Shown: positions 2,722-60,360, counted from the first letter of the whole stretch. The stretch is DNA of 62,053 nucleotides, filler included, from Stramenopiles sp. TOSAG23-6 (GCA_900128565.1; 23 parts of 23 records of this genome joined end to end with filler, not necessarily neighbours in it); one strand, 5' to 3'. Notes: a model not told the origin generated them from the letters alone. A program made the numbers and translations.

Positions 2722-2775
2722 TACGAAATTTCGTACCTAACGAATTTTTTTTTGAAATATTTTTTCACAATACTT

Positions 2776-3514
2776 GCGTTTCAGTCGGAGAAGCGACGGA
2801 GACTTAACATCCAAAATAATCTTGCAAATGAACGTAACCTGTTCATACATAACCCAAATAGATGCATTAAACGTCAATTAACCAAAGCAAAAATACGTAA
2901 AAAATTGATGGAGAAATCTGGGTATTCCTTGGAGGCCATGTACGTTGTCCACTTTCTTTCTAAAAATATTTTTTTAAAAATTTTGTACCTAACAAATTTA
3001 AGTTTTTTATTTTTGAAATCCTTGGCCCAAGGCTTCTTAGATTCAGGTTTGTATGCATACTCAAGACATCCAAATTACTTTGCTGAAGTATCACTTTGGT
3101 GGTGTTTATATTTGTACACTCTATCGATGTCTGTTGAAATGCATCAAAGTGATAATGTTTGGGATACACTGTATATTTTCATGATCAATTTAGGAATTTT
3201 TTATTTTTTTATCGAAATTTTTTTTCATACGAAATTTTGTACCTAACAAAATTTTTTTTTTTTTTTGAAATATGTCCCAGCATTACATAATTGATTTTCG
3301 ATTACAAAATGTAGTTTGGTTCAATTGGTCTATATTTGGATGCATTTTATTAACTTTGTTATTTATCGCCCCAGGAGGCTCTATCGACTTTGGTGAGTCT
3401 ATTAGCGCAGCCAAATATGACAAATATAAATTATACCAGAGTAGAGTCAGTAAATTTATTCCTTGGTTTCCATCAACTGAAAATGATTTCACTAAAAAAA
3501 CAAAAAAACATTGA
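2776..3514 (+). CDS. DUF1295 / steroid 5-alpha-reductase-like membrane protein, 3' part (exons 2776-2939, 3024-3170, 3289-3514)
   Basis: GFLDSGLYAYSRHPNYFAEVSLWW and E.IS..KY..Y..YQ.RVSKFIPW motifs. Frame is restored by removing two family introns. Confidence 0.85.
2940..3023 (+). mobile_element. Family intron (GT...TT)
   Basis: GTACGT start, TTTTGTACCTAAC core, removal joins SLEA-M-AQGFLDSG. Confidence 0.7.
3171..3288 (+). mobile_element. Family intron (GT...AT); upstream CAG at 3278-3280 not usable
   Basis: Removal gives WDTL-IDFRLQ. Splicing at the CAG gives CTC ATT ACA TAA (stop). Confidence 0.8.
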
Positions 3515-3753
3515 AAAAAAAATCAAAACAATACATGGACAATAAACACTAAAAAAACAAAAAACATTGAAACAAAAATCAAAACAATACATGGACAAAT
3601 AAATGATGATTTAGATATAATAAAAATGGTAATACTATTTTATAGTACTAGTACTTTATTCATTTATAATTTTTCTGATTTTTTTTTTAATTTTCTTTCC
3701 CATGACCGAATCTGAATTGATGTCTTCTTTTTTACTTTTTAAACCCTAACCCT

Positions 3754-5342
3754 TTAAAAACTCATCGAAAATGTATTGGTATTACTTAGAAGTACACTAT
3801 CAAAATATGAAAGTAATTCTTGTTGATTTCGTGTCTCTACAAGTAGTACATCAATATCTTTTCGACTAGAGATTTCTGCAATAATATGTTTGGGATGATC
3901 ACCAATGATTTTATTATACACAGCATCATACTCAACAACAACAATTTTATTATTTGTCCTTTTAAACGATTGAACAAGATCAGGACGACGAATAAATAGC
4001 AAATAAGGCAGTTTTAAGACATCATATATATCAAATAAATTTTCATAAATAGCTCTTTCTAATAATTTTTCATTATGGATAAAAACTCCGAGCAAATTCG
4101 GATTCGTGTCTGTTGTAGGGTTAGGGTTTCCACAATTAGGGTTAGGGCTATTTTGTACATTTAATAATTCAAATTGTAAATCCTTGTCGCGTAAAACACC
4201 CATTGACATTTCCACATCCATTCCAACACCAAATGATGTATATAATAAATCAATATCATTTCCAATTTTTAATTTTTTTTTTCTATTTGACAAATGATCA
4301 TATAACAATTTCTTATAAAAATCTGTAGGTACAGTTGCAGTAGGGTTAGGGTGAATTGTCCATGTAGAAGTGAAGATAAAATTAAAATTTTCACTCCATT
4401 TACGAAATAAAATTTTACAGTGATGTTTGTTTAGTGGTATATCAATGACAACATGTATATTTTTCTTTGTGCTTTTTTTGGGGTATACATCTGGTGCATT
4501 TTTAGGGTTTTTAGGGTTTTTAGGGTTAGGGTCAGGACTAGGTACATTTTTACTATAAAGTTCAAAAAAATTCAACATTAATTTTTGCATTTTTACAATT
4601 GAATTTAAATCTATTTTAAGTTTTGAAATCTTGTCAGTCTGTATTGTGAATATATATATATACTTTTAAAGTAAAATGATTTTTGTTAGACACAAAATTT
4701 TGAAGAAACAAAATATGAAAAAAAATTAATTTGAAAGAAACAAAATTTGAAAAAAAATTAATTTTCAAGAAACAAAATGTGAAAAAAATTAATTTTGAAA
4801 ATGTACTATTAAAGGTGAATAATGCTTTGTATCACATTTTGTATCAAATGTTGAAAAATTCAAACCTATGAATGAGATATGCGTAGTAGTACCGTTAACA
4901 TTGATTGGTGTTACTCTCATTTTTTTTTCAAATGACACTGTTGAAGTCTCTAATTTTTGTTGAATTTTACATGGAATTAGATTAGGGTTAGGGTTACATG
5001 GAAGCACAACTTCTCCAGGGGTATTATTATTAGTACGAGTTTGTTTTGTAACAACATTCACAGCATTCAACATATTATCATATAAATCTAGACGAATTTT
5101 AAATTGTTTTGATATCCAAGGGTGATGTATTGTAAACAAATATATATAATTGTGAAAAAAACACAAAAAATATCGTTAGGTACGAAGTTTCGTACGAAAA
5201 AAAACTTGGAAAAAACAAATTGAAAAAAAACTATATATATATATATGGATAAAATAATCGTTGGGTACCAAAAAAAATGTTTCAGACAAAAAAAAATAAA
5301 TTTGAAATTGATAATGAAAAAGTACATGATTTTGATTTCCAA
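3754..5342 (-). CDS. Hypothetical protein, 3' part, with PNPN inserts; family introns 5125-5325 (GT-AT) and 4639-4806 (GT-AG)
   Basis: ORFs 4789-5166 and 3754-4590 join in phase 0 across the 4639-4806 intron. No recognised domain. Confidence 0.6.
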
Positions 5343-5442
5343 NNNNNNNNNNNNNNNNNNNNNNNNNNNNNNNNNNNNNNNNNNNNTTAATTAATTAANN
5401 NNNNNNNNNNNNNNNNNNNNNNNNNNNNNNNNNNNNNNNNNN

Positions 5443-6228
5443 GAATATGTTGATAGAATTATGATTATTCATTTGTTTTATTATTCAGATATTGTATACA
5501 GTATATCTCGTATTTTACATGTATTACAAATATAACTACAACAAAGAATATGTTGATAGAGTTATGATTATTCATTTGGTTTATTATTCAGATATTGTAT
5601 ACATTATATCGCGTATTTTAATTTTGTTAGAAATAAAAGTACAACAAAGAATATGTTGATAGAATGATAATTATTTATTTGGTTTATTATTCAGATATTG
5701 TATACATGATATGCAGTATTTTAATTTTGTTACAAATCTAACTACAACAAAGAATATCTTGATAGAATGATGATTATTCATTTGGTTTATTATTCAGATA
5801 TTGTACACATTATATTGGGTATTTTAGATTTTGCTACAAATAAAACTACAGCAAAGAATATCTTGATAGAATGATGACTATTCATTTGATTTATAATTCA
5901 GATATTGTATACATGATATAACGTATTTTAATTTTGTTACAAATATAACTACAACAAAGAATATCTTGATAGAATAATGATTATTCATTTTATTTATAAT
6001 TCAGATATTGCATACATTATATTGGGTATTTTAGATTTATTACAAACATAACTGCAACAAAGAATATCTTGATAGAATTATGATTATTCATTTTATTTAT
6101 TATTCGGATATTGTATACATTATATCTTGCATTTTAGATTTATTACAAATATAACTACAACGAAGAATATCTTGATAAATTATGATTATTCATTTGGTTT
6201 ATTATTCAGATATTGTATACATGATATG
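5443..6228. repeat. AT-rich tandem repeat, ~103-bp unit, ~7.5 diverged copies
   Basis: GAATAT(G/C)TTGATAGAAT..GATTATTCATTTG..TTATTCAGATATTGTATAC recurs at about 5443, 5546, 5649, 5752, 5856, 5959, 6062 and 6165. Confidence 0.95.
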
Positions 6229-8061: not shown

Positions 8062-8161
8062 NNNNNNNNNNNNNNNNNNNNNNNNNNNNNNNNNNNNNNN
8101 NNNNNTTAATTAATTAANNNNNNNNNNNNNNNNNNNNNNNNNNNNNNNNNNNNNNNNNNNN

Positions 8162-9170: not shown

Positions 9171-10772
9171 ATGACTGCGTTACGCATTGCATATGCTTCG
9201 TCGCAGTACCTAGTACGTAAGGCTACGCATATATCAGGTGCTCACCACCGACAAATACGACCACTCACTCTAATTCAAAGTGTNCTTAATTACCATATAA
9301 GNACGGTCACAAATNTACGTCAACANGGAACGCGTCAGAATGGGCATGTGAATCGTTCTGTACAGAACCTTGGCAAACAAAAGAACCAAAAGAACCTTGG
9401 CAAACAAAATGCAGCTCTGGACTTTCAATTGCTGAGTCCAAAAATGGTGAAACAAATTTGGCAGAATTTNTACGAGTCTTTATCCAATGACACTTTAAAA
9501 GCAAAAACCTGCTTCAATGCGATCAAGATTTGTCTTAGCACTGCCGATATGATTCACATAGCATTTGATATTATGCCAAGAAAAGGCTTATTACCAAGGA
9601 GAAGTATTAGAGATTTCATTGCTACTCGATTTCTATTAGAGGGTGATATAAATGGCGCAACGAATTTCCTAAATTCACCTGTCCCAAAGTTCAGTACAAC
9701 TGAATTACAACTTCTTCGTGATACATCAAAAAGTCGTAGAAAAGATGTGTATGACTTATTATATACAAAACCTTTTATTGACAATAGTTTGGGTAGTATA
9801 AAAAATGCAGAAAATGTTGATCATCTAGACGAAAATGCTGATCAACTAGACATTACAAACAAAAATAACAAAAATAACAAAAATAACAAAAATGTATTAA
9901 GCCCACCATCGTTTAGACAAGCTCATCTCAGGCAATGTCGAGAAAAACTTTTAGAGTTTTTCATAAATTGCAATGAACACCAAGCTGCGTGGGATTTTTT
10001 CCATAAATTAGAAAAAAATCAAAAACTTGTAAGTTTTATTTTTTTTTACCGAAAAAAAAAAAAAAAAAAAATCGATTTTTTTTTCATAGTAAATTTTGTA
10101 CCTAACGATTTTTTTGGTAAAAAAATTTTGAAATATTTTTCCAAAATATATACGACGCCTCTCTGTTCATTGATATTACGTTGTTGTTATGGTTGGAATG
10201 ATTATCAATATGTCATTGACCATATTATGAAAAAACATAACCTCAAAATGGATGTTGGTATCTTTTATAACTTAATTACGCTGTTACGAATTGAAGGAAA
10301 CAAACCTGCCGTTCAAGCTTTAATTGACACCGCAATGTATGTTTTATTTTATTTTTTTTTTTTGGTTTAAAAAAAAAAAAAAAAAATGGATTTTTTTTTT
10401 TGTACGAAATTTCGTACCTAACAAATTTTTTAAAAATTTTTTTGGAATATTTTTCCAAAAAACATGCCAGCGAATAATGTAAAACCGACTAAATTAATAT
10501 ATGAAGTTTTAGATCGTGAAGAACCAAGTTTTAGACGAATGGCAACGTCAATCATTAAACAACATGTTTTTTCTAACAACGTGACTCGTACGTTTTCATT
10601 ATTTTTTTTTTTTGGTTTCGTACGAAATTTTGTACCTAATAACAAAAATAACAAAAATATTTTCGTTTTCATTATTTTTTTTTTTACAAAAAAAATTAAA
10701 ATTTTTTTTTTCGTACGAAATTTTGTACCTAATAACAAAAATGTTTTTGATTTTTTTTCACAAAACATGTTT
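9171..10772 (+). CDS. Helical-repeat (PPR-like) protein with a possible mitochondrial presequence; family introns 10029-10151, 10337-10465, 10588-10768
   Basis: PPR-like segments MKKHNLKMDVGIFYNLITLLRIEG and MPANNVKPT; Arg/Ser-rich N-terminus. Confidence 0.6.
10029..10151 (+). mobile_element. Family intron (GT...AT)
   Basis: The same site holds a 107-nt variant (42484-42590) in the second copy of this contig, which delimits the insertion. Confidence 0.85.
10337..10465 (+). mobile_element. Family intron (GT...AT, flanking AT duplication)
   Basis: Removal gives DTA-M-PANNVKP. The next AG (10470) gives ATC GAA TAA. Confidence 0.8.
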
Positions 10773-10992
10773 NNNNNNNNNNNNNNNNNNNNNNNNNNNN
10801 NNNNNNNNNNNNNNNNTTAATTAATTAANNNNNNNNNNNNNNNNNNNNNNNNNNNNNNNNNNNNNNNNNNNNATGTTCTTTTTTTTTTTTTACAAAAAAA
10901 TTCGATTTTTTTTTTTTGGTTTCGTACGAAATTTTGTACCTAACAATTTTTTTTTTGGTAAAAAAATTTTGAAATATTTTTCCAAAAAACAG

Positions 10993-11427
10993 TAACACAA
11001 GATGAAGATGTTCTTGATACATGGTTTTCCTCTTCATTATTACCACTCAGTGCATTAGGATGGCCAAATAATAACCCTAACGCTACTCATTCTAATCGAT
11101 ATCCTCTTGATGTAATGGAAACCGGATGTTTGTTTTCATCATGAATTTTTTTTTTTTTTTCATACGAAATTTCGTACCTAACAAAAAACTTTTTTTTCTA
11201 CATTTTTTTTTTTTTTTTTCACAATACATCGGATATTTTGTTTTTTTGGGTAGCTCGAATGGCAATGATTTGTTCTGAATTAAACCCTAACCCTAACTCT
11301 AATGATGATGAAAATAGAAATCATCCATTTAATCGAATTTTACTTCATCCTATGGTACGAGATCGATCTGGTAGAAAAATGTCAAAAAGTTTAGGAAATG
11401 TGATTGATCCAAATCATGTACGTGTTT

Positions 11428-11466
<39 letters not shown>

Positions 11467-11515
11467 GGCAAAATTAAAATTTTTTTTTTTTTTTTTTTTT
11501 TTTCTAGCAAAAATA

Positions 11516-11546
<31 letters not shown>

Positions 11547-12090
11547 ACTATGAATTTTTGTATTTTATTAATTTTTTGAAATATGTTTGAAAAATATCCT
11601 CTATAGTATATGTCATTAATGGTATATCTCTGCAAACATTACTCTCAAATTTAGAAATTGGGAATTTAAACAAGAATGAAATCAAATTGGCAACAAAAAC
11701 AATGAAAATGGAATTTCCACAAGGCATGTATGTTTTTTTTTTTTTTTTTTTTTTTATTTTTCCAAAATACATTCCTGAGTGTGGAAGTGATGCGTTGAGG
11801 TTTACATTATTAACATATTTACAACAAGGAACTAATATTAACATGGATATTGGTAGAGTTGTAACACACAGGCAATTTGGTAATAAAATATGGCAAGCTA
11901 CAAAATTTGCATTACAACATCGAATTTCTCCTTTAAACCCTAACCCTAATTCAACAATTCCAACAACAGTTGAAATGTTATTTGATGCAAAGAATAATAG
12001 TACTATCAATTTTGATACACTGAAAGATTCAGGGTTTCTACATCAATGGATTTTATCAAGATTAGCATGTATGTTATTTCATCATGAATT

Positions 12091-12129
<39 letters not shown>

Positions 12130-13322
12130 GTAAAAAAAATTTTGTACCTAACAAATTTTTCAAATTTCAATTTTTTTTTTGTATGAAAATTTTGTACCTA
12201 ACAAATTTAAAAAAAAAATAAAAATATTTTTCTACATAAAAGACACTACTGAAACTGTCAATAAAAGTCTTGAAATTTTTGATGTTTCAGCAGCTGCAAA
12301 AAGTATTCATTCTTTTATACAAAATGATTTATGTGGTACTTTTATAGAATGGTCTAAACCAATTTTGAATACAAAAAATAACCCTAACCCTAGTAACCCT
12401 AACCCTAGTTGTGTAATGACGGGTTCGTATGAAATAACTACAACAATTTTACATATTTCTTTAGAAGCATCTTTACGTTTAATGCATCCATTTATGCCTT
12501 TTATTACTGAAGAATTATGGCAAAAATTACCACTTAATAACCCTAACCCTAATTCCAGTAGAAACCCTAACCCTAATTCCAGTAGAAACCCTAACCCTAG
12601 AGAAAATTTGGAATGTTTGAAAAATGTTTCAAAAATAACAAAATCAAATAATGATAAAACGTCTATAATGATGTCAGCGTTTCCAACGACATGCTCTAAC
12701 ACTGCAAAAATATGTGGTACACATTCCATTGATTTGTTATATGATAAAAATGTTGAAACGAAAATGTAAGGTTTTTTTTTTCGTAGTAAATTTTGTACCT
12801 AACAATTTTTTTTTTTTTTTTTTTTTTTTTGACAAAAAAAAATATGTTAAAATTTCATACCTAACAAAAAAAATTTCAAAAAATATTTTTTACTATTACA
12901 TGGAAACATTACTCTCTGTATATAGAGGTGTTCTATCATTACGAAAACAAGCTAGAGATTTAGGTGTTTCAGTAGAAAATACAAAAGATATTGTAGTAGA
13001 TATTACTATAAACCCTAACCCTAGTACAATTTCAAAAAAATCAAAAATTTCAAAAATTTCAAAAAAATCAAAAATTTCAGAAAAATCAAAAATTTCAAAA
13101 AAATCAAACCCGTCTACAAATAATAATAATAATAATAATGATGGAATGGATGAAAAAAAATTGATTCTTTTGTATAAAAAATCTCTACTTGAAAGATGTC
13201 AACTCAATTCTATTGATATACACACGAAATCTGACGTACACACGAAATCTTTACAAAATGAAAAATCTTTGGTGTATGTTATGAATGATTGCTGCACCAT
13301 TCGATTACCCGTTTCTCTTGAT
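10993..13322 (+). CDS. VARS: Valyl-tRNA synthetase, C-terminal half (exons 10993-11127, 11230-11417, 11612-11727, 11773-12068, 12243-12765, 12902-13322)
   Basis: [59 protein letters not shown] and [15 protein letters not shown] motifs. Confidence 0.95.
11128..11229 (+). mobile_element. Family intron (GT...AT) in ValRS
   Basis: Removal restores [15 protein letters not shown] exactly. There is no AG near the junction. Confidence 0.92.
11418..11611 (+). mobile_element. Family intron (GT...AT) in ValRS, poly-T expanded
   Basis: Removal restores [15 protein letters not shown]. The TAG 5 nt upstream would frameshift. Confidence 0.85.
11728..11772 (+). mobile_element. Family intron (GT...AT) in ValRS; interior probably collapsed by assembly
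   Basis: Removal restores [15 protein letters not shown]. Confidence 0.9.
12069..12242 (+). mobile_element. Family intron (GT...AG) in ValRS with duplicated branch core
   Basis: Removal restores WILSRLA-x-TTETVN spacing. The AG sits at the same distance from AAATATTTTT as the AT of other copies. Confidence 0.75.
12766..12901 (+). mobile_element. Family intron (GT...AT) in ValRS
   Basis: Removal joins VETK-M-ETLLSV in frame. Confidence 0.8.
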
Positions 13323-13669
13323 GTACGTTTTATTTTTTTTTTACAGAAAAATTGATTTTTTTTTTTTTTTTTTTTCATACGAAATTTTGTACCTAACAAA
13401 TTTAAGTTTTTTTTGTAAAACTGTAGATTTTTTTTTTTTTTTTTTTTTTTAAATTCAAAAAAAATTTTTTTTTTTTTTTTTNNNNNNNNNNNNNNNNNNN
13501 NNNNNNNNNNNNNNNNNNNNNNNNNTTAATTAATTAANNNNNNNNNNNNNNNNNNNNNNNNNNNNNNNNNNNNNNNNNNNNTTTTGGAAAAATATTTCAA
13601 AAAAAAATCGTTAGGTATAAAATTTCGTACGAAAAAAAATTCGAATTTGAAAAAAAAAATAAAACATAC

Positions 13670-15103: not shown

Positions 15104-16097
15104 TCAACATTTCCAAATTCGACAAGTGTTGTCTTTTGATCCAGTAATAACAGTATCCCCCTCATAGTTGAAAGCACATGAAAAAATTTCATCTGTATGT
15201 CCTTCAAGTATTTGAAGACAATCTCCGGTATCAACATCCCAGAGACGCGCAGTTTTATCACTACTTGCCGTCAGGATTTTAGTCCCTTGAGGATTGAACG
15301 CAACTTTTGAAATTTCGCCCTCATGGCCAATTAGGATAGCTTGACAAGCACCAGTCATGGAGTTATAAACTCTTGAAGTTCCATCCGCAGATGCTGTGAC
15401 AAGTTTGCTTCCAGTCTCATTAAAGCAAACATCTAGTATTTCATCATTGTGTCCTCGTAAAGTTTGAACACATCGACCAATATATTGTGAAAATATATAT
15501 TTTTTCTTTCAAGAAAAAAATCGTTAGGTACAAAATTTGGTACGAAAAAAAAAACTTAAAAAATTTGAAATTCAAAGAAAAACGTACGTAGCGACATCCC
15601 AAATTTTGCAAGTTCTGTCTATCGAACCACTGATGCATAAATCACCAGCGAAATTAAATTGTGTTGAAGAAATTTCTCCATGATGTCCGGCTAAGGTATT
15701 AATGCACCTTCCTGTTTTAATATCCCAAACTTTTACGGTATGATCAAAAGATACATAGTGAAAAAATATTTGAAAAAAAAAAAAAAATGTTAACCCTAAC
15801 CCTAATGGAATTTTTTGAAAAAAAAAATTCAAAAAAAAAAAAAAAACCCTAACCCTAATGGTTACATACATCCAGTTATAATATTATCTCCAGTCGTATT
15901 AAAATTCAATGAAACAATTTCTGCTGTATGACCGAGTAGAGTGTGTATTTCCTTCCCAGTTTCCACATCCCATAATTTAGCAGTGTTATCCATCGAACCA
16001 GTAGCTACAATTTTCCCATGAGGATCGAAAGACAAACAAACAATTTCTGTGGCGTGTCCACGAAATGTATAAAAAAGTTTTCCAGTCTCTGAGTCCC
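15104..16097 (-). CDS. DAW1: Dynein assembly factor with WD repeats 1 (ODA16/WDR69), 3' part; family introns 15751-15869 and 15480-15587
   Basis: Consecutive WD40 repeats ending [30 protein letters not shown], the characteristic DAW1 C-terminus. Confidence 0.92.
15480..15587 (-). mobile_element. Family intron (GT...AT) in DAW1
   Basis: Removal restores [17 protein letters not shown]. Confidence 0.9.
15751..15869 (-). mobile_element. Family intron (GT...AT) in DAW1, containing TTAGGG repeats
   Basis: Removal restores [13 protein letters not shown]. Confidence 0.9.
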
Positions 16098-20626: not shown

Positions 20627-21540
20627 ATGATTTCAAAAATTATCTTTCTTTTATCGATCTGCTCCGTGTCAGGGTACTTACGTGCCCCGATGACTTCTAT
20701 GAAGACGCCAGAACCTATTCTTGGCGCTACTGGGTGCACAGGAAAGCTTCCTTGCTTACCAGGTATTGATGCAATGGGTATCGGATTCGACGCTGTCACA
20801 GGGACTTCAGATTTGCTTCTCCCAGTTATCGAATTTACGTACAACAGCGACAACGTCTTTGTCAACCCGTTTGATAAAAAATTAACGTACTCCGTTCCAG
20901 ACGAAGCCTCTGTAAGAGTTGCTACTTCGGTAAACAGTGGAGTCACTTCTAAAGCCTTTACAACCACAAGATCCTTCGAGAACAACCAAAGTCTGAGTGT
21001 TGGTTTATCCGGTGAATACGGCGAATTCTCTGGCAGCATCAATGCAAAGTGGTCACGTGATCATTTACATGAAACTCAAAGGTATGGTAGTGTTGTTCAA
21101 TCTTCACTTGATGTTTCATTGTACGAAGTTGCCTTACAACCTTCTCCTTTACTAAGGAAATCCGCCGCTTTCGATAAAATGGTGAAATTGCTACCTCGTT
21201 CATATGATAAAGCAAAGTACGACGATTTCTTAGTGAATTTTGGTACGCACTACGTCTCGGCTGCCACTTTTGGTGGTTCGGGTAGAATGCTATCTGCTGT
21301 TGATACTTGCTACACAAAAGAAAAAACTTCATCTGAGATTGAAGTCGATGTATGTTTTATTGTTTTTCAAAATCGTTTTTTTTTCATACGAACATTTGTA
21401 CCTAACAAATTTTTTTAGATTTTTTTTTGAAATATTTTTCCAAAACACATGCGTCGGCACATTTTGCAACAGTTGCAAACCTAACTTCCTCTTATAAAGG
21501 ATCTACGAATACCACTGACACAGAATTCATGAAGAATAGT
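20627..21540 (+). CDS. Secreted MACPF-domain (perforin-like) protein, 3' truncated; family intron 21350-21450, next intron starts 21541
   Basis: Signal peptide, LPGID.MG.GFDAVTG and Y..F...FGTHYV..ATFGG MACPF signature. Confidence 0.9.
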
Positions 21541-21700: not shown

Positions 21701-21934
<234 letters not shown>

Positions 21935-23117: not shown

Positions 23118-23963
23118 ATGGTAGGATCAAATAAGATCGATTTTAGTGTCCTTGCTTCACCCACCTTGACCGATTATTCCGAGTGTAGATTAGTCAAGCA
23201 CAGTGACTTAAAAATGAAAACGGTACAACAGTCAACCCAAATTCTTCGCAGCTGTTTGAAGTCTTCATCGTATAAAGAACCAATAACGAGATATAAAACA
23301 CGTCGTCGTGTTGCTTTCAACCTTACAATGACAAAGAATATATTTTTTCTAAGCAAATCTGAGGCAGAATTTGCAAGAGAGGCTAGAATTGGATATTATA
23401 CAAAGCGTGTGAACTCAAAACCTCGTCGTAGCGTTAAAAACAGAAACAATAAACATCCTACTAGAAAGAAAGACGCTGTCCAGCAAAAACGACGAAAAAA
23501 ATACAAAAGGGCAAGAAAAGAAAATTATGAAAAAGTACAAAATAATACTCAAAATAATACTCAAAATAATACTCAAAATACTCAAAAATATACTCATATT
23601 GTGAATGCAAATAATACCAATAATAATACTAGTAGTAGTAGTAATAATAATTGTAAGGAGGAAAGGGACACTATCCAAATTCTAAATGCATTATACATGA
23701 ATATTGGCATGGATTCTATTTTGAATGTGCTGCGGAACACCAACTTAAATAATAGTAATACTCATGAAACTTTGCATTTGTTATCCATGTATGTTTCTTT
23801 TTTTCAATTTCAAATTTATTTATTTTTTCGTACGAAATTTTGTACCTAACAATGTTTTTTGTGATTTCGTATTTTTTCACAATACATGTTGACATTCTTT
23901 GTTGTCACTGGAATAATTGCATTAGCATTAGTCATTGTAAATTTTGATGAAGTCGGTGGTTAG
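23118..23963 (+). CDS. Hypothetical tail-anchored protein; family intron 23789-23887 (GT...AT)
   Basis: Splicing adds a C-terminal TM helix MLTFFVVTGIIALALVIV before the stop. An RRVAF (RVxF-like) motif is present. Confidence 0.65.
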
Positions 23964-24568: not shown

Positions 24569-25943
24569 TGAACCATTGTCTATCCTCTGGAAATCAAGAC
24601 TTACACATATACGGTATTGGTATTGGTGGACCTGTTGTTACATCAGGCGGGACTTCAAATGTTGTTTATGGCTTAACGACTCCTGAGGTCAAAGTAGGTG
24701 GTCAGGCTTGTACAAATGTAACTATACTTTCAGCGCATCATCTTCAATGCAAGACTCCTGCAATTTCACCAGCAAAAACAAACGACATTCAATCTGTTAT
24801 TGTAACTGTAGGGAAGTGGAATTATGACAATAGTCAAGTATTTTACAATGAAGCAAAACAAATCTTAGCTCCTGGTGGGTTAATATATACAAAAACAACA
24901 ATACCAACAGTTATCACTTTAAAAGGCTGTATGCCTGCTGACAGTGTGAAAACTGTAAATACTATAGATGTATGTAAGCCTAAGCCTACTATGAAAGTTG
25001 TTATCTAATTTGTTTTTGTAGGAATTTGTATATCTAACGATTTTTTTTCTGAAATTGATTTTTTACAACACATGTACACCATATGAAGAAATTATCTGAT
25101 ATAATTATTATGTCAAATGCAACTGGGAATCTTTCAGAAGAGCAACAATTGTATGTTTTTTTCAAGAATGTTTTTTTCAAGAATGTTTTTTTGAAGAATT
25201 TTTTTTTCAAGAATGTTTTTTTCAAGAATTTTTTTTTTCAAGAATTTTTTTTTTTCAAGAATTTTTTTTTTCAAGAATCTAACATTTTATTATTTTCTAA
25301 AATGTCCCAAACATTACATGGGAACATCATGCCCTGTGACAGGTTCTGATATAAATGTCTCTAGTACTAAACTAATCATCGGAGGTTTTAATTTTGGTAA
25401 GGCAAATACACACACTTTAAATGTAACTGTAGGCGGTGTTAATTGTTTACATCCATCCTATGAAATGGATGATTATATAATTTCATGTTATGCACCAGCG
25501 GGAATTGGCTCTACTAACGTTGTGCAAGTGACACGTGTCAAAAAAGCGGATAATACTTCAGTTTCATCTTCAAATACAGGAGCACCGTCTGTGCATTATT
25601 TACCCCCCGCAGTCTCTCGAGTTTTAATCGACTGTGAAGACTCTATGTATGTTTTATTTTTTTCAATTTCAAATTTATTTTTTTTTCGTACGAAATTTTG
25701 TACCTAACAAATTTTAAGTTTTTTTTTTAAATATTTTTCCAAAATACATAAATGCAACAAAATGTTCAGAAAAATTAACAGATTCTTTTTACAAAAATGC
25801 TCCAATGGCTAATGCATTTGGAGCTTCAAAGTTGACAATTATAGGTACTAATTTTGGTACACAAAATCCTGGATCAAAACTAAAAATAAAATTTCAAAGT
25901 CATTCTGGAGTTGTCAGCACATGCGCTGCTAAAGATACTAAAT
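24569..25943 (+). CDS. IPT/TIG-repeat surface protein, internal fragment; family introns 24970-25073, 25151-25319, 25647-25749
   Basis: L.I.G.NFG..V.VGG..C......I.C..P.G.G repeats typical of IPT/TIG domains. Confidence 0.75.
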
Positions 25944-26068
25944 GTATGTTTTATTTATTTTTTTTTCTTTACCAAAAAAAAAAAAAAATCGAATTTTTTT
26001 TTTCGTACGAAATTTTTTACCTAACAATTTTTTTAGATTTTTTTTTGAAATATTTTTCCAAAATCAAT

Positions 26069-37920: not shown

Positions 37921-38591
37921 CGTGGTACATTAGGTTTTGGTGATGATTTTGCTCAAGGTAATATCGGCATGCAAGGCATTGCTGATATTGATGATATTCT
38001 TACAGGTATCAATTACTTAAAACATGAAAAATATATATCTTGTAGATCTCGAATAGGCGTCTTTGGTGGAAGTTATGGTGGATATCTTACTTTACGTTTA
38101 TTAAGTAAAACTACTGAGTTTAGTGCTGGAATTTCAGAATACGGATTTATTCATAATCGTTGGATGACATTAGAAGGAGGAGATCCGACATGGGAAAGTG
38201 AATATGTATGTTTTTTTTTTTTCAATATCATTTTTTTTTCATACGAAATTTTGTACCTAACGATTGTTTTTTGAAATATTTTTCCAAAATACATATTGGC
38301 CAAGAGAATGTATGGCCATTAAATAATACACTCCAGAGAAGTGATATTTTCAATGATTTAGTAAATATTAAGACTCCATGTTTATTTATGCATGGAGAAA
38401 AAGATGATATATGCACACCATCACAATCACTTGTAGCGTTTAGAGTTTTGAAATCAAATAAGATTCCCACTGGACTTATTATCTACCCAGATGAAAAACA
38501 TGGATTTTCTAAACCATGTAATAGACAAGATCGAGATAGACGAATGTTATTCTGGTTCTTGAAGTTTATGCCTGTCAACTCAATAAAATAA
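37921..38591 (+). CDS. S9-family serine peptidase, C-terminal part; family intron 38206-38294 (GT...AT)
   Basis: GGSYGG nucleophile, HGEKDD and YPDEKHGF catalytic motifs. Confidence 0.92.
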
Positions 38592-48826: not shown

Positions 48827-48999
48827 AAGGTGGTCCACGTCTTTTTCTAGTTCCTTTACGTTTATGAATTGTTGTTAGATGGCTTGCATACGACATATTT
48901 TCCATTGATTTGTTTGACATTTTCGTTTTATGGAAATTCCACCAATGGAGAAAACAATCCTATATTGTGAATTTTTTTTTTCCAACTTTTTTTCCCTAT

Positions 49000-49032
<33 letters not shown>

Positions 49033-50058
49033 AAATGTCTTAGGTACAAAATTTACTATGAAATATTTTTTGGAAAAAAAAAAAAAAAAAAAAAAACGTA
49101 CAACGACTCCTTCTTTTGTATTTGTTTGCATATTAATTAACCCTCGTAATGAAGGACAGCGACTGATTAAACCTCTTAATTTCCACCCTATAGTGTGAAA
49201 CAAAGACGAAATTTCACCCAAAAAAAAATGTTAGGTACAATGTATGGTACAATTTATGTTTAAAAAAAAAAAAAAAATTCTATGAAAATTTTCATACAAA
49301 ATTTTTTTACCAAAAAAAAAAAAAATAAATTTGAAATTCATCAATCAAAACGTACATGGATATTGAATCAACTCTTCACGCGAAGGACATGTATCACAGA
49401 GTTGAGTTACATTGAGATTTGGTCCAACATGAAGAAAATCACAATGTGTGCGACATTTTTGACAACGAGCTAAACCACCAGAAAATGGATCAACAAATTC
49501 ACAAATTCGACATTTTGGACAGATTTCCCTGCATAATTCACAAAATGATGTTCCTTCAAGCTTTGGTATATATAAATATTGTCGAAGTAAGATACTACTT
49601 ACCTTAGAAGCAGCACTAAAATCATGAATTTGAAAAAGTTTCATAAATTCTTTAGTCAAAACTCGAAGTTGTTCCCGTTGCCAGTGACTGAGTTCAATTT
49701 CAGTCTTTACATTGTGGTTTCCACGTAAGCTTGCTGCAGCGGCATCTGTGCCAACAGACCATTTGTCAGGACAAATATGTCCCCACTTTGGTTGTAAACA
49801 CCTCGAGCAAATTTCAGCTTTATGTTGTTGTGTGAAACCTGCTAAACGACCTCTCTTTACGGTACGATAACTACTTGAAGCTGCAACAGATTTACGCTTT
49901 TTACTAGTTGAACGAGTTTTTCTCGTAGATTTTGTCTTTGCTTTTGTTTTTGTATCTTTTTTAGATTGCGAAGAAGTGTCAGGAGGTGTTGAAAATACTG
50001 GTCTTTCCGACATTAATTCAGAGTCTTGTGACGCCGCCATTTGTGAAATCCAATCCAT
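48827..50058 (-). CDS. Cys-rich nuclear-type hypothetical protein; family introns 49188-49355 and 48960-49101 (both GT...AG)
   Basis: C..C...K.GH.C knuckle and further CxxC pairs. Frame is continuous after splicing. Confidence 0.6.
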
Positions 50059-51633: not shown

Positions 51634-52814
51634 TTATAAATTTAATTTAGGTGACAATTCAAATAGAAAATATTCTGTACAAATATTTTCCCCTCTTTCC
51701 ACTCTACCACTTTCTTTATGATTTGATAAAATTGAAAATCCAAATTGTTTAGCTGTGTTTAAAATATATATAGTGGAATGTATGAAACGTCCATTTTTAT
51801 TTAATTCCCATTCAAATTGTTCATTTTTATTGAATTCTTTTTGGTCATTTTTATTGAATTCTGTTTTTTCATTTTTATAACTTGACAAAGTATCATTTTT
51901 ATTACTTGACAAAGTATTATTCTTTGTAAAAAAACATTCAGTACTACATAAAAACATTAAACGATAATATTGGTCCACTTGATATTGTTTCCTACGAATA
52001 GAATACCCGGTAACAATTGCTTCAAAAATAGAAGATACATCACCAAAATAAACTAAAACATCTGCAGCTACAACTAAATCAATAATTTGAGTATTAGTTT
52101 CATTCATGATATATTTTTGACTATTATTATATTTATGTAATAAAGATGATATCATAATAGAATCATCAATTTCACCCACCAAAACTTCATCATATATTTT
52201 GTATTTCAAATGATTCTGTTCTTCATTTTTTCTATTACGTGCAATAGTAACCATTTTCGGTGATATATCGATACCTATGGTTTTTCTGGCTATTCCATGA
52301 AATGCTAATCCTAAAAGTCCAGTTCCACAACCCAAGTCAAGAAGTATATCTACAATAAAATTTGTATTTAATGTTTTATTATTTTTATGAATTGTTGGGT
52401 ATTTTTTATTATTTTTATGAAAATTATTATTATTTTTATGAAAATTATTATTATTATTATCATCATTATTATCATCATTAGTAGTACTACAATTATCAGT
52501 ATTATTACAATTATCATCATTATCATCATTAGTAGTACAATGATTACTATTATAAAAATCATCATGATTATCAAAAAGAGTATTATTAAAATAAGATTTA
52601 AAATGTTTTAAAAGTATATCAGGTACTTTATATCGTAATCCTTTATTAGAACTATTTGATTCATTTGTTAACATCACTGAATCAAATTCATCAGAAAAGT
52701 CATCAAACAATTTTTGTATATACGAAATAAATTGTTAAAAAAATATTTCAAATTCAAAAAGTGTACTTTTTGTTAGGTAATTTGAGAAATACAATGTAGG
52801 ATAAAAACTTTAAC

Positions 52815-52845
<31 letters not shown>

Positions 52846-53878
52846 TTTTTTTAGGCAAAAAATTTCTTATAAAAAAAAAAACATTCGAAATAAATTAGGA
52901 AAACATACATGGGTGCCTTTTTTACCTTTTTCATCTTTTTCAAACGTTTATTATTTGAAAATTGTAAAGAATGCAACATATGAATAGCTGTAGCTAATGT
53001 TGCATTTTTATGAGCATGTAAACGCTTATTAAAACGAAGTGTATGAAGCATAGAACTCTTTTCATTTGACGTTTGAAATTGATTAATTACATCTTCATAT
53101 AGAATTGCTGCATCATAAAAATACTATGAAAAAATATTAAAAAAATATTTTGTTTTCGTTAGGTACAAAATTTCGTACGAAAAAAAAACTTTTGTAAAAA
53201 ATTAAAAATGATGAAAACGTATAATTCGCCTTTTTCATGTAATAAAGTAGCTAAATTATGCATCGTATCAATATGAGTAGGTGCAATATCCAAAGCTCTT
53301 CTCAATAAATTCTCTGCACCTTGCATCGAATATTTTTTTAGTGAAATTGCATGTGCATTCAACACATTAGCATTACACGAAATATCTTTACATAGAAAGA
53401 GACATTGTTCAAAACTATATTCTGCTTCAACATTTCTATTAAAATGGAAGAGTAGTATACTATGTATTTTGGGAAAATATTTTTTTTTTTTTGTTTAAAA
53501 AAAAAAGTTTTTTGTTAGGTACAAAATTTCGTATGAAAAATAAATAAATTTAAATTTAAATTTAAAATTGATCCTGAGAAAACATATATGTTGTATGATT
53601 GCATCTATATTTGAAGAATCATTTTGAATTGCTTTTTCAAAAAAATCAAATGCAGTTTCAAAATTAGCATTATTTTGATATAATATACCAAGATTTGTAA
53701 GAATGGAACTTTGTGTTTTTCGTGTTTTTCGTGTTTTTCGTGTTTTTTGTTCAAGTTGCAATGCTGTTTGAAATGCAATTTCAGCTTCTTTGAAAGAAAT
53801 GTCTGATATGAGAGGTTCATCGCTAAGAGCAACACCAAAATTTAATAAATGTTTTGATAACTCTCTTTGTTTGGGAGC
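51634..53878 (-). CDS. TPR-repeat SAM-dependent methyltransferase; family introns 53462-53587, 53119-53222, 52727-52908
   Basis: TPR helices, AP-I-SYIQKLFDDFS..FD, LDLGCGTGL, GIDISPKM, DLVVAADVLVYFGD and GRF.HS..YI motifs. Confidence 0.88.
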
Positions 53879-53921: not shown

Positions 53922-53958
<37 letters not shown>

Positions 53959-54402: not shown

Positions 54403-56640
54403 CTACACATCTATGATATCTCTACCACTACTAGTGCTTGAACTACTTTCAGAACTTTCAGATACACTCTCTAATGTATTGGCGTAACGCGGTCTGTAAC
54501 TAGAGTGTAACAGACTTGTTCTGTATGGACTTCTCGATTGGATTCTACCACCTGGTGGAAGTCCTGTATCCATGCTACCTCCACTACTACCTTGACTTGC
54601 CGGTGCCGAATTCCATTTTGTCCTAGATTCTCGAACTGCGAGAAATCGACGCAGTCTATTGTACCCAGTACGACTACGACTGGCGTGTGTTGAATCATCA
54701 TCGTTCAAGTATTCATTAGATAAAGCCGAGGCAGCCGCAACTTCTGCACGACGACGAGCTGATATAAGACTATCACTTGCAATTTTCATTTGGCTTGAGT
54801 GTAACCTTCTAATCGCTGGTGTCATCCAGGCTCTTCGACATCGACGATGACTCTCACGAGCATGCAGCACTGTTAAATCTTTGCGAGTGACAATACCAGC
54901 GACATCACCATCCAAATCAAGAACACATAAGTGTCTTAATTCAAGACTGCGAAAGATTTTAAATGTTCTTGTAAGGGATGCACGTTTATTCACAGTAAAT
55001 GGCATACCCATATATGGAGACAGATCGACAAACAACTCCCGCTCTTCAGGAGATAATGACAACTCTTTCACATTTACATATCTTGGATACAAGGTCTCAA
55101 ATGCTTCCCATGGAAGTGCCTCTGCAACTGACTTTGAATTTAACCCACGAAGAGATTGTTGCAACCATTCTGTATTTCCACGCGCCATGATTTCTTCTAG
55201 TGGTCTCAAGGTTTGTGCTTTATATTGATTGCACAACAGGACGCATAATTGCTTACGCTTAATTATACCTGTAAGATGTCTCGCCATTGTATCATCAATA
55301 ACGTTTGAATCACTTTTGATTGCATACGTAGAATACGCAGATGTCGATGCGTTAAATTGAAAATGTTGATTATCAGACGAATTTGTGTTCTTTGTTGAAA
55401 ATGACTTTTGAGTTCCCTTTCTTGAAGAAGGTGATCTTGGTGATCCTAAACCACCCTCTGGATCATGACCAATTCTTGGACGGTAAATTACTACAGGAAA
55501 CCCACTGTGTTGTGTACTTTTCAGCATATCAAGTATAGTACCAGCTTTCTCAACTGGTTGAAGCACTTTTGGTTGACAACTCATTACATTTTCAACGTGT
55601 AATCTTCGAAACCATTTTGGTGGGTCCCACTCTAACAGAGGAATCCCTCGTTCTTCAATATGCATATCATATAAACCTTCATTGAAATAATTTCCCACCC
55701 AACGTGCAGTTATAAAAGTGACTAAGAGAGGAAGACCATAATTAATGTCTCCACACGATTCAAGCATAATGACAGTGAGTGAGAGAACCATACGANNNNN
55801 NNNNNNNNNNNNNNNNNNNNNNNCCAAGTACAGCAGCTGCGCCTATCAGTGCACAATTACCGTAATGTAAATATTGCCAATTGTTTGCCGCACTACCCAT
55901 CAAACTATCTACAATTTGTCCACACATCTTTCCATACGCTGAGCCTGCTACAATAAGAGGCATAAACACACCGGCAGGAACTTGTAGGCCAAGTATTGTG
56001 AAAAATATTTAAAAAGAAAATTGTTAGGTATGGAATTTAGAATCAAGGACAAAAAACAAAAAAAGATTTGAAATTTATCATGAAACATACAAATGTATAA
56101 CATGTTGTGAAGAAATAAAAGACGAAAAATGTGATGACTGGTAAATATTGGGTTGTTAACAAAACTGTTGGCACCCAACCACCGCCTGAAACTAAATTTT
56201 CTATAGAGCTCATCCCAGGTGCGAGCAAAAATCGCACAAGTTGTGAATTTGTAGCTGAGTTGCACGGTGGAATGACCACCACAGGTGTAATCATTCCAGT
56301 TGTGTTGGTACTATTATTGAATGTAATACTATTATTGAAATATGTGTTACTACTACTACTATCCTGTGTGTAACTTGGAAGATCTTTCACCTTACAATTT
56401 ATAAATGTATATGGAAAGAAAAATCCTCCTATACTCATGAGAAAAGCCATACATGCTGCTTCTAACAACATTTTGAATGGTTTTCCTACGATATATTTTA
56501 AGCGAAATTTTGTGATTCTACGGTTCATTGAAACAAAGGCAGCACCTAAAATTCCCCCACCTATACCTATAAGAATAAATATAGGCAATTCCCAATATGT
56601 GTATGCGTATTGCCATTGAGGATGATTACCGGAAGTACCA
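54403..56640 (-). CDS. CLC chloride channel/antiporter (CLC-6/7-like) with CBS domains; family intron 55991-56090 (GT...TT)
   Basis: GIGGGILGA.F, TF-GLQVPAGVFMP, RM..SLTVI..E, GN.FNEGLYD and CBS motifs HSGFPVV and LRHLCV..GIVTRKDL. Confidence 0.93.
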
Positions 56641-57003
56641 TTATTTGGTTTAAAAAATGATTTAAAAAATGATNNNNNNNNNNNNNNNNNNNNNNNNNNN
56701 NNNNNNNNNNNNNNNNNTTAATTAATTAANNNNNNNNNNNNNNNNNNNNNNNNNNNNNNNNNNNNNNNNNNNNATATATATTTATAACTAACAAATACAT
56801 TATGTACTCAATTATCATACAATACAGGGATTACAACAATGACAAGGTAACAGGCTGTCAATAAAATTAGTTTTGTAATTACAAACAAAATAAAAATATT
56901 TCACATATGTTTTTTACAATATTATGATGATGTTATGGTTATATAAAAAAAAAAACGAACTTTTTTTTTTTAAATTTTATTTACAAAACCCTAACTCTTA
57001 GAT

Positions 57004-57847
57004 TTACCCTACATAAAAACAATTTGTTGTCGAGGTTAATAAATCACGAGCCTTATCAAAATAATATCCCTCTAATAATAGACGAACATCTTCTAATAAA
57101 ATTCCTTTATTCTCTGGATCGTTGATCATGTATTACGAAAAATATTTCAAAAAAAAAATTACAATTTGTTAGGTACAAAATTTNGTACGAAAAAAAAAAA
57201 NTANTAANCAAAAATATGATGAAAACGTATATATCTTCAAGTAGCTCCAATGTGTCATATCGCATAGATGCTAATTTCATTCCTTGTAAAATACCTCTTA
57301 CTTGATTACAGCTAAATCCTCCTTCTATTTTATCCTTAATAACGCGTATGACATCTTTTTGATCAGAAGCTTGTTCGAGATTTTCCATAACTTTTTTCAG
57401 TTCCTCGGGACAAAGATTTGGTGTCGCTTTGCAACGCCTGTGTTGCCAAAACCATTGGCGTGTTGCATCGACAACCCCTGATTCTATTGACCCACAAGAA
57501 TCAGCTCTACGAATTGTCTTTGCAACAGTACTTGAAAGATGAGGGAGTCCACTGTTCACAAGTGTGCCCATCGTAATCGTTTTGCAGTTTCCTTGCAATG
57601 TAGAACTGACTGAGGTAGGTAAAACTTCCCCATATGTTACTGGAGCGGATAGAACTTGTTGACGTGGGAGGACTGTTTCGTTCGAAATAGATGCAGCTGG
57701 AGGAAGCATTGGTGGAGGACTATCTAAAAGACACAGCTTATAACGATTTTTCAAAAGTTCAACAGCTTCCTCTAAAGTCTCGTCTGTCATTCTGTTGAGC
57801 ATGCCAACTGCCTCGGCGATATGATCAGCACGGGATTTTTGAGACAT
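57004..57847 (-). CDS. DUF4476-like protein (duplicate copy); intron 57128-57230
   Basis: Same as 16518-17361. Confidence 0.65.
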
Positions 57848-58539: not shown

Positions 58540-59244
58540 TTACACAAAAAAACTTGATATTGTAATACATATACTTGAGCCTGCAAGCAAGAAGAATGAA
58601 AGTTCAATTGAATTTTTTGATTTTTCAAAATGAATATTGTCCTTGATTCTGTAATAATCTGATGTAGCTTCCAGAATATATTTGAATTCATAAAACCATA
58701 CCAAAGATCCAATACATAATAGCATAAATGATAATAAAGAAACATTCATTGTAATTACATATTTATCAGCCATTACAGTACCTATCGAAACACCAAGTGC
58801 AATAGTTGAAAGAATACAAAAAGAAAAAATGACTTCACCACCAGTTTTGACTTTTTGTAATCCTTTGATGTAATTATTCCTTGCTTTTTCGAATTTTGCA
58901 GATTTTGTAGCAGAATTGGCGACTTCTTTTTTCGTTTTTGAAATGTATGATGAAAATGTATCCTTTGTTTTCTTTACAGCATCACCATTATTCATTGTTG
59001 CTTCCACTTTCCTCCATCGAAATGTGAATGCAGCATAATCCACGCCATGTCCGCTCAATTTTACTGTTCCATATTTATCAACAGATAGTGCTGCAATTTG
59101 AAGTGCAATGGCAGCAATCAAGAAAAAACTTGGGATAGCTTTCTTTATCCAATCAATTTGAGTTTGTTCTTTTTCTTTTGTGTGATCATTTGGATCAATG
59201 GGTAGAAATGGTTTTGATTGTTCCGATAGTTTTTTTTCATCCAT
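58540..59244 (-). CDS. Four-TM claudin-like protein (duplicate copy)
   Basis: Same as 18070-18774. Confidence 0.6.
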   Translation of the reverse strand: MDEKKLSEQSKPFLPIDPNDHTKEKEQTQIDWIKKAIPSFFLIAAIALQIAALSVDKYGTVKLSGHGVDYAAFTFRWRKVEATMNNGDAVKKTKDTFSSYISKTKKEVANSATKSAKFEKARNNYIKGLQKVKTGGEVIFSFCILSTIALGVSIGTVMADKYVITMNVSLLSFMLLCIGSLVWFYEFKYILEATSDYYRIKDNIHFEKSKNSIELSFFLLAGSSICITISSFFV

Positions 59245-59517
59245 GTTAAATTGTTTTACGTGTTTTACTGGTTGTAGTCTTTTTGTTTTTCTGTTTGTTT
59301 TTCTGTTTGTTTTTGTTTGTTTGTTTATTATTGTCTTTTAGGTCTTTTAGTAATGTTATGATTNNNNNNNNNNNNNNNNNNNNNNNNNNNNNNNNNNNNN
59401 NNNNNNNTTAATTAATTAANNNNNNNNNNNNNNNNNNNNNNNNNNNNNNNNNNNNNNNNNNNNTGTACCTAACAATTTTTTTTTGTTTTTTTTTTGAAAT
59501 ATTTTTCCAAAATACAT

Positions 59518-60197
59518 GGAGCGTTTAGCTTTGGCACAAGAAAAAAGAAATGATTTAAATAAAAGATCAAAATCACAAAATATGGCATTGAATAGAACCT
59601 TATATGAAATAAATGAGACTAATATTCATGAGAAATTTCAAAAATCATTGAAAGAATTTGAAGATATATTGAATCAAGTGACAAATGACGAACAGGAAAG
59701 TCTCAAAATGTTATTGGAAAGTGATGCTAAAAATATTATTACAGCTACATCTCAACCTACTAGGTTGAAAGCTAGGTTTAAAAAACAAATTCAGTCTAAC
59801 CCTAACCCACAACAAAATGAAGAACTTGAACAAAGAAATTTAAAACGTCCACTCAAGAATGCATACAGATTTCGTGAGCTTCATAACCCTAATGCATACA
59901 GATTTCGTGAGCTTCATACATTATTAGCTCCCAATGTTACTCCAGAACAAGTCACTGTAAACAAAAAACACGAAAAAAACCAAAAAAACAAAAAAAACAA
60001 AAAACACGAAAAAAACCAAAAAAAACAAAAAAACGAAAAAAAAATCTTGGTCAGTGAAGAAATTCGAAATCTACCCACAGGAGGACAACGCATATTTAGT
60101 CCATTAAATGAATCTTTTTATTTTGATTCTTTTCGATTTCGTGAAACAGACACGAAAAATAAGATTTTGAAAATATGTAGTCATTCTAAAGGTCCAT
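59518..60197 (+). CDS. Hypothetical coiled-coil protein exon bounded by family introns
   Basis: Open frame between ...AATACAT at 59517 and GTACGT at 60198. Confidence 0.55.
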
Positions 60198-60213
60198 GTA
60201 CGTTTTCATTATG

Positions 60214-60360
60214 AATTTCGAATTTAGTTTTTTTTTTCGTACGAAATTTTGTACCTAACAAATTTCGAATTTAGTTTTTTTTTTCGTACGAAATTTTGTA
60301 CCTAACAAATTTCGAATTTAGTTTTTTTTTTCGTACGAAATTTTGTACCTAACAAATTTC
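60214..60360 (+). repeat. Triple tandem copy of the ~46-bp intron core
   Basis: AATTTCGAATTTAG(T)nCGTACGAAATTTTGTACCTAACA three times. Confidence 0.9.

Follow-up and report, generated by a model that had tools for sequence, protein, structure and literature searches.

Few lineages break the GT–AG rule of introns wholesale, and both the reasons for its near-universality and the tolerance of the catalytic core are open questions. They are raised anew by the window studied here, 62,053 bases from the assembly of Stramenopiles sp. TOSAG23-6 (GCA_900128565.1), in which 23 contigs of 2,590–2,621 nucleotides (nt) each are joined by N44, a 12-nt stop-codon spacer and N44 again. What defines the 3′ end of a family of introns that begins with GT and closes, in most copies, with AT or TT, and how did such introns arise? 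We find that the family lies in the sense orientation in unrelated genes, that its excised lengths are exact, that AG is absent from most of its 3′ ends and that contigs from RNA libraries pass two of the junctions without the insert. The copies look like transposon-derived introns (introners). With a little more than even confidence, we propose that they stem from one non-autonomous introner and are removed from RNA, most probably by a U2-type spliceosome that would choose the 3′ site independently of AG.

The intron family and its ends

Copies are recognized most easily by a conserved box, TACCTAAC, which occurs 48 times in the window against 1.02 expected occurrences (largest shuffle, 4). 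The 48 matches fall into 46 element groups, five of which are repeats of one locus in contigs 4/16, contigs 7/22 and the chimeric contig 12 (see below), and a matrix scan recovered further copies that lack TACCTAAC and keep the end motifs alone. In an alignment the copies form one family, in which GTAYGT at the start is followed by a stretch rich in T, a short palindrome adjoining TACCTAAC, a T-run and an A-rich 3′ motif; the 5′ end reads GTAYGTTTT, the 3′ motif closes in AYAT and the box belongs to the full-length copies. The host genes are unrelated, encoding ValRS, a DAW1-like WD40 protein, a CLC channel, and MACPF, TauD, peptidase S9, EF-hand, methyltransferase and TPR proteins. An original prediction, made from the sequence alone, had described one intron family inserted in unrelated genes in their sense orientation, and both parts of that description hold: the longer flanking open reading frame (ORF) lies on the element's strand for 46 of the 48 TACCTAAC matches, and all 26 introns checked for reading frame are in sense.

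These 26 non-duplicate introns, a hand-curated set to which a third DAW1-like intron was added, range in length from 45 to 194 nt and have a G+C content of 0.11–0.23, compared with 0.23–0.52 for their 60-nt flanks. At the 5′ end, G is found at position +1 in 23 copies, and T at +2, A at +3, G at +5 and T at +6 in 25 copies each, while +4 varies (T in 14, C in 10 and A in 2). With positions +1, +2, +3, +5 and +6 nearly invariant and +4 free, the pattern resembles a U2-type 5′ site. The TACCTAAC box, which contains CTAAC, is present in 21 of the 26 introns, 31–53 nt upstream of the 3′ end, and T is the commonest base at positions −16 to −12. The 3′ end is conserved as Y at −3 (24 copies), A at −2 (22 copies) and T (23 copies) or G (3 copies) at −1. 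A contig end lies within 110 nt of a family box in 18 of 44 cases, whereas 15% of the whole sequence lies that close; the assembly therefore breaks at the family repeat, which suggests a high copy number.

The reading frame provides a test of where each intron ends, namely the 3′ position at which the long ORF upstream and the long ORF downstream become continuous. The test was applied to 30 start/end pairs, four of which (10588–10768, 26869–26980, 54102–54193 and 5125–5325) were uninformative. The motif-defined end joined both ORFs in 23 of the 26 informative pairs, and ends shifted by ±1 or ±2 failed to do so; the count of 23 included one duplicate locus and one spurious call. The motif-defined ends at 11611 and 12901 are also in frame. 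The spurious call, a 39-nt intron at 49063–49101, passed the frame test by chance and was rejected: on our reading of the sequence the intron extends to 48960, where it has an AG end and is in frame. In the final set, 25 of the 26 introns are in frame at the family-defined end, where one-third would be expected (binomial P about 2e-11). The sole out-of-frame motif end, that of 25944–26068, has an in-frame alternative that also reads AT (Table 1).

By motif, the terminal pairs of the 26 introns are GT-AT (16), GT-TT (3), GT-AG (3), AT-AT (2), GG-AT (1) and AT-TT (1), so that the 3′ dinucleotide is AT in 19, TT in 4 and AG in 3. These proportions match those of the hand count that accompanied the original prediction (AT 23, TT 4, AG 4 and TG 1 in 32 copies). 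Short repeats at the borders permit shifted registers in 24 of the 26 introns, AT..AC being possible in 10 and TG..CA likewise in 10, and a GT start, found in 22 by motif, is attainable in 23. An AG end is attainable in any equivalent register in only 3 of the 26, which bears out the earlier statement that no register supplies AG in the non-AG copies. Splicing at a nearby AG was also checked, and for 23 of the 26 copies no AG lies nearby and in frame. Among the three AG copies, in 48960–49101 and 49188–49355 the same 3′ motif is found with G replacing the final T, and in 12069–12242 the ACAT is kept and the splice falls at an AG 5 nt beyond. Assembly error cannot account for the AT ends, because AT is the consensus over independent loci. 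Junctions without any redundancy are fewer than had been thought: 15480–15587 has none, as predicted, and reads GT..AT, whereas 3171–3288 and 28396–28490, listed with it as free of redundancy, have a 1-nt T redundancy that allows TG..CA.

Some copies vary in their internal structure. The branch-box region is found in tandem within single introns, with two boxes at 12133–12210, two at 12780–12870 and three at 60240–60360, spaced by about 47–62 nt. Between contigs 4 and 16 one intron differs (GTAAGT and 123 nt in one, GTATGT and 107 nt in the other) and the exons are almost unchanged.

Excised lengths in proteins and in RNA-library contigs

Homologous proteins fix the excised length independently of the motif. 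The conserved junctions used in the original prediction, ETG-S-DIL and FPQG-I-PECG in ValRS, ITG-S-FDH in DAW1, TF-GLQVPAG in CLC and AP-I-SY in the methyltransferase, were all recovered. The ValRS exons around 11128–11229 match residues 448–488 and 490–539 of the Thermus ValRS (1gax_A), and one residue remains for the codon split by the intron. Against P0001, a ValRS fragment of metagenomic origin, a gap of 15 residues coincides exactly with 11728–11772, and the alignment is unbroken across 11418–11611, with 2 residues between IDP and the next block, the same number as after intron removal. For the peptidase S9 gene, the exons flanking 38206–38294 correspond to positions 23–106 and 135–209 of the Peptidase_S9 Pfam profile, and 29 residues are available for the 28 positions between.

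The comparison with RNA covered one contig, that of ValRS, on which RNA-library contigs bridged 2 of the 26 junctions. Both are free of the insert, and retention of the insert, which had been raised as a concern, is therefore not seen at either. In X7 record 22, position 12068 is followed directly by 12243, so that the 174-nt GT..AG intron is absent. X5 record 13 covers 11664–11719, then has 5 letters, and then covers 11770–11898; the genomic gap between these blocks (11720–11769, a repeat-masked region) is 50 nt, and the net loss is 45 nt. There are as many of these letters, five, as there are exon bases ahead of the CAT that is found on both sides of this copy. Its registers are CA..TA, AT..AC, TG..CA and GT..AT, none with an AG end. 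Each of the two records differs from the studied sequence at a few positions and therefore comes from a close strain. The contigs carry no strand or abundance information, and the DNA run X4 has zero cover at both bridged junctions. Ratios of intron to exon depth are lower in the poly(A) libraries X5 and X7 than in the DNA run X4; contig depths are unsuitable for this purpose and the ratios were not used. One further record, X8 record 29 (11230–11425), appeared to start exactly at an exon and was rejected as an artefact of repeat masking.

Origin of the introns and the choice of the 3′ site

Many near-identical copies in unrelated genes, all in the sense orientation, are what is seen in introners. 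The bases on the exon side of the 5′ junction may point in the same direction. The last exon base is T in 25 of the 26 introns and the penultimate base A in 18, with AT at −2/−1 in 17. The exon-end dinucleotide equals the intron-end dinucleotide in 17 of 26, compared with a permuted mean of 13.4 (P = 0.029). Among introns ending in AT or TT, TT is the end in 3 of the 5 that follow an exon ending in TT and in 1 of the 15 that follow one ending in AT (Fisher P = 0.032). A 2-bp target duplication would leave such a trace. The family has the look of an introner derived from a transposon, its 3′ dinucleotide tending to repeat the final pair of the exon; this anatomy is new relative to the original prediction. 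In such a model, a non-autonomous mobile element would have landed mostly in AT or TT dinucleotides, each of which it duplicated, and cutting at the element's own GT and just past the duplicated pair would restore the original reading frame. We propose that the final intron bases are AT or TT, not AG, because they copy the duplicated target. The inverted terminal complementarity amounts to only about 6 bases, the duplicated AT included, and no transposase ORF was noticed among the 20 ORFs scanned in the window.

Spliceosomal removal is the best reading of the family in view of its exclusive sense orientation, its 5′ site, its branch box and its T-tract. A U2-type spliceosome would recognize the strong 5′ site, the branch box and the T-tract, and would locate the 3′ site from where the AYAT motif lies rather than from an AG. 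Compared with what is usual for U2-type introns, the GT-type 5′ motif and the CTRAY sequence upstream of a pyrimidine tract are present and the 3′ AG is lacking in all but 3 of the 26. The original prediction had gone further, to a relaxed spliceosome with AG-independent selection of the 3′ site, and is partly supported. Precise removal stands at the two RNA-bridged junctions, one of which is unable to end in AG; the transposon origin, the participation of the spliceosome and the GT register are what we infer, and any alteration of the machinery would be hypothetical.

Several observations weigh against this interpretation. The register is ambiguous in the 24 introns with border repeats. AT is the start of three copies and GG that of one, which is uncommon among U2-type 5′ sites. 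The 45-nt ValRS copy consists of the end motifs only and has no CTAAC box, yet it is missing from the RNA contig. The RNA support comes from two junctions in one study, and its source is assembled contigs, not reads, of libraries in which DNA may be present. No small nuclear RNA (snRNA; Rfam) or splicing-factor gene was found in the window, and no lariat was seen. As for the origin of the family, the duplication signal is modest, with 9 of the 26 copies lacking a shared dinucleotide, and neither an autonomous element nor an empty site was seen in the 62 kb.

The ambiguity of register leaves room for a different cut by the same spliceosome acting on the same elements. If the cut lay 2 nt further left in every copy whose AT repeat permits it, many introns would be AT..AC, a known compatible A/C pair, and the rest GT..AT. 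The mRNA would be identical in the ten introns that allow this register, which include two of the three copies with an AT motif start, and TT..AC is possible in two further introns. However, less than 2 nt of left redundancy makes AT..AC impossible in 9 of the 26, including 15480–15587, and a GT cut rather than AT..AC agrees with the conservation of G at +1 and +5. WD40 repeats usually carry T at the position interrupted in the DAW1-like gene, and the shifted cut places I there. We therefore regard this variant as unlikely. A minor, U12-like system, expanded and transformed as in Physarum, seems improbable to us. GT-AT and AT-AT do occur among those U12-type introns of Physarum that are non-canonical (preprint 10.1101/2020.10.12.336362), but the family has GT rather than CC at +5/+6, and its box lies 31–53 nt from the 3′ end, not 10–15 nt (about 10–20 nt for U12-type introns). 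RTATCCTT occurs twice in the window against 4.3 expected occurrences, and never at a family start; no minor snRNA was found in the 62 kb, which is uninformative for such a sample.

It is also conceivable that no spliceosome is involved. In euglenid nonconventional introns, structure-guided excision relies on paired ends that bring the exons together, and short direct repeats at the boundaries are found there (PMC11282704) as they are here. The exon AT together with GTAT can pair with the terminal ATACAT, and this stem is predicted to form in 4 of the 26 introns, the 45-nt copy among them. The mean number of expected end pairs is nevertheless 2.70, compared with 1.85 when the 3′ end is shuffled, with 16 of 26 introns above the control (a set that still included the false 39-nt call); end pairing is 0.03 at 15480–15587 and almost nil at several frame-validated introns, the T-to-C changes at +4 are uncompensated, and the ends and T-tract are conserved, unlike those of euglenid nonconventional introns. 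Such a route appears doubtful, slightly more so than the AT..AC cut. Removal from DNA, as for the eliminated sequences of ciliates, or an origin of the insert-free contigs in intron-less alleles or contaminating DNA, is in our view very improbable. The short border repeats and inverted termini resemble eliminated sequences and RNA libraries sometimes contain DNA, but strict sense orientation is unexpected under DNA excision and the long ORFs are open under the standard genetic code. No insert-free DNA contig is listed, a weak point since X4 has no cover at the two junctions.

The larvacean genus Fritillaria appears to be the closest precedent for AG-independent splicing of introners. In the primary report, on F. 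borealis and F. pellucida, the triplet YAY is often found just ahead of the 5′ site and almost always makes up the intron's final three bases, AT is the commonest 3′ end (34% in F. borealis and 44% in F. pellucida), and the introns are removed by a U2-type spliceosome, with U2AF duplicated in F. borealis (PMC13326754). A review derives these introns from miniature inverted-repeat transposable elements and their 3′ site from the exonic triplet that precedes the intron (PMC11282704). As in Fritillaria, the window contains many recent, transposon-like introns with a U-rich tract, and most copies close in YAT. AG is the start of the main Fritillaria classes (AG/AC and AG/AT), however, whereas 22 of our 26 introns have GT as part of a yeast-like GTAYGT start, in addition to a box of the CTAAC type, and here one family makes up nearly all the introns seen. 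The logic would be the same, with GT, the yeast-like 5′ site and the branch box retained. The original prediction held that the known lineages with mass non-canonical introns have other consensus sequences; this is so for the 5′ starts of Fritillaria, but its commonest 3′ end is already AT, with the same YAY signature. It is possible, though we would put it at somewhat less than an even chance, that the default 3′ site turned to YAT independently of Fritillaria, in a genome where about nine in ten introns come from one element and the 3′ site is a copy of the target, and that the major spliceosome there reads GTAYGT and CTAAC and can dispense with the terminal G.

Other systems share fewer features. 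The introners of Amoebophrya (Syndiniales) are likewise repeated introns with inverted repeats and direct repeats of 3–5 nt over the borders, mostly non-GT-AG, but they have no preferred terminal dinucleotides, their inverted repeats are 8–20 nt long and U1 snRNA was undetected (PMC7789003); the family in the window has uniform ends (GT followed by AT or TT) and an inverted repeat of about 6 nt. Canonical introners of Micromonas, Aureococcus, dinoflagellates and many others also form single families in sense orientation, in which the duplicated target supplies part of a splice site (PMC11282704; PMC12130899), but are spliced at GT/GC-AG. Nonconventional introns of euglenids and non-canonical introns of hemistasiid and uncultured marine diplonemids, all of them marine or free-living flagellates, depart en masse from GT-AG and have direct repeats at their borders (PMC12621601; PMC6221363). 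They differ in having no conserved termini and extensive pairing of the ends (PMC12621601; PMC11282704), where our family has conserved termini and weak pairing. The papers searched, supplements being outside the scope of the search, yielded no earlier record of the family or of protist introns of a GT-AT class, and TACCTAAC was met in papers only in primers.

Because textbook 5′ and branch signals are paired with a non-AG 3′ end in a homogeneous family, the 3′ requirement is isolated here in a way that comes near to a designed experiment. An introner that makes viable introns without supplying or borrowing an AG would widen the set of transposons able to seed introns. Gene finders that require AG would mis-annotate nearly every gene of this organism. 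The pipelines of introner surveys begin with annotated introns and check or discard families with unfamiliar ends (PMC12130899); surveys resting on AG-based annotations would miss this family.

Host, contigs and individual loci

The host looks like a single-celled marine eukaryote. The contigs have a G+C content of 23–37%, as in an AT-rich marine eukaryote, and contain ORFs of up to 716 codons under the standard genetic code. Of the words sampled from an 8-kb stretch, 59–81% are present in three small DNA runs of 2015 and 5–39% in seawater metagenomes and poly(A) metatranscriptomes of 2022–2024; the latter matches point to a free-living marine eukaryote as the source. The encoded proteins are distant from every labelled sequence, and protein searches did not return near-identical transcript-derived proteins, the best matches having 41–43% identity for a ValRS exon and 58% for the EF-hand protein. 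Relatives of the EF-hand protein that carry labels come from choanoflagellates, dinoflagellates and stramenopiles, and none from euglenozoans. In a search for longer relatives the DAW1-like sequence matched only long bacterial and fungal WD40 proteins, and a 22-nt stretch of the family had zero matches among JGI metagenome contigs.

Two pairs of contigs are near-duplicates, contigs 4/16 (8162–10772 and 40617–43211, 99.0% identity) and contigs 7/22 (16288–18893 and 56774–59363, 99.2% identity), and may represent alleles or separate cells. Contig 12 (29814–32416) is an inverted-repeat chimera that carries two introns and their exons on both strands (30060–30163/32067–32170 and 29833/32390). Inverted chimeras of this kind are a typical product of multiple-displacement amplification. 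Since the assembly breaks at the family repeat, genes are systematically cut at introns, at contig ends throughout. The individual introns and partial copies are listed in Table 1.

Table 1. Introns and partial copies of the family, with positions counted from the first base of the window
Feature	Position	Strand	Remarks
Intron GT..TT, 84 nt, truncated 3′ part	2940..3023	+	Joins ORFs of 72 and 73 codons at this end only
Intron GT..AT (or TG..CA), 118 nt	3171..3288	+	Joins ORFs of 149 and 74 codons
Intron GT..AT, 123 nt	10029..10151	+	Near-duplicate locus 42484–42590 (107 nt)
Intron GT..AT / AT..AC, 129 nt	10337..10465	+	ORFs of 288 and 102 codons; duplicate 42776–42904
3′ part of copy cut by contig start, ACAG before ValRS exon	10873..10992	+	5′ end missing; outside census
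ValRS intron GT..AT / AT..AC, 102 nt	11128..11229	+	Exons align to 1gax_A 448–488 and 490–539
ValRS intron without TACCTAAC, GT..AT, 194 nt	11418..11611	+	In frame; comparison with P0001
ValRS mini-intron, 45 nt, 5′ and 3′ motifs only	11728..11772	+	X5 record 13; 15-residue gap against P0001
ValRS intron GT..AG, 174 nt, two TACCTAAC boxes	12069..12242	+	RNA contig X7 record 22
ValRS intron GT..AT, 136 nt, box duplicated	12766..12901	+	Joins ORFs of 204 and 150 codons
5′ part of copy running off contig	13323..13481	+	
DAW1-like WD40 gene intron GT..AT, 108 nt, no redundancy	15480..15587	-	ORFs of 98 and 124 codons
DAW1-like intron without TACCTAAC, GT..AT, 119 nt, TTAGGG repeats inside	15751..15869	-	
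MACPF gene intron GT..AT, 101 nt	21350..21450	+	
Intron GT..AT, 99 nt	23789..23887	+	
Intron GT..AT, 103 nt	25647..25749	+	Joins ORFs of 150 and 123 codons
Intron	25944..26064	+	Motif end 26068 out of frame, in-frame 26064 reads AT; lone exception to frame rule
Copy at contig end, GT..TG by motif	26869..26980	+	Downstream flank too short for frame test
EF-hand gene intron without TACCTAAC, GT..AT, 95 nt	28396..28490	+	ORFs of 208 and 266 codons
Motif-defined GG..AT intron; direct repeat of 6 nt permits GT..AC	32067..32170	+	Mirrored at 30060–30163 (-)
TauD-family gene intron GT..TT, 105 nt	34880..34984	+	
Peptidase S9 gene intron GT..AT, 89 nt	38206..38294	+	Continuity of Pfam profile
Intron GT..AG, 142 nt	48960..49101	-	Replaces false 39-nt call
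Intron GT..AG, 168 nt	49188..49355	-	Joins ORFs of 236 and 85 codons
Methyltransferase gene intron GT..AT, 182 nt	52727..52908	-	
TPR gene intron AT..TT, 104 nt	53119..53222	-	Joins ORFs of 90 and 88 codons
TPR gene intron AT..AT / AT..AC, 126 nt	53462..53587	-	ORFs of 104 and 100 codons
CLC channel gene intron GT..TT, 100 nt	55991..56090	-	Gives TF-GLQVPAG
Intron AT..AT / AT..AC, 103 nt	57128..57230	-	Duplicate 16642–16744

A second repeat in the window is the telomere-like AACCCTAACCCT, with 15 occurrences against 0 expected. Many of its copies lie in frame in coding exons of ValRS and other genes, where they read NPNP, and within ValRS alignments they are insertions relative to the homologues; the sites include 11283–11294, 11936–11947, 12380–12406, 12539–12598 and 13011–13022, as well as 4117–4128 and 4984–4995 on the minus strand. 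The sequence is found twice inside a DAW1-like intron (15792–15803 and 15845–15856), with TTAGGG on the sense strand. At 46944–48599 an inward-rectifier K+ channel (Ion_trans_2, IRK_C) shares a single open frame with the N-terminal domain of GST, and at 32607–33863 on the minus strand the ORF of a cap guanine-N2 methyltransferase (Methyltransf_15) runs via a long N/T-rich low-complexity stretch into a conserved-looking part without a Pfam match.

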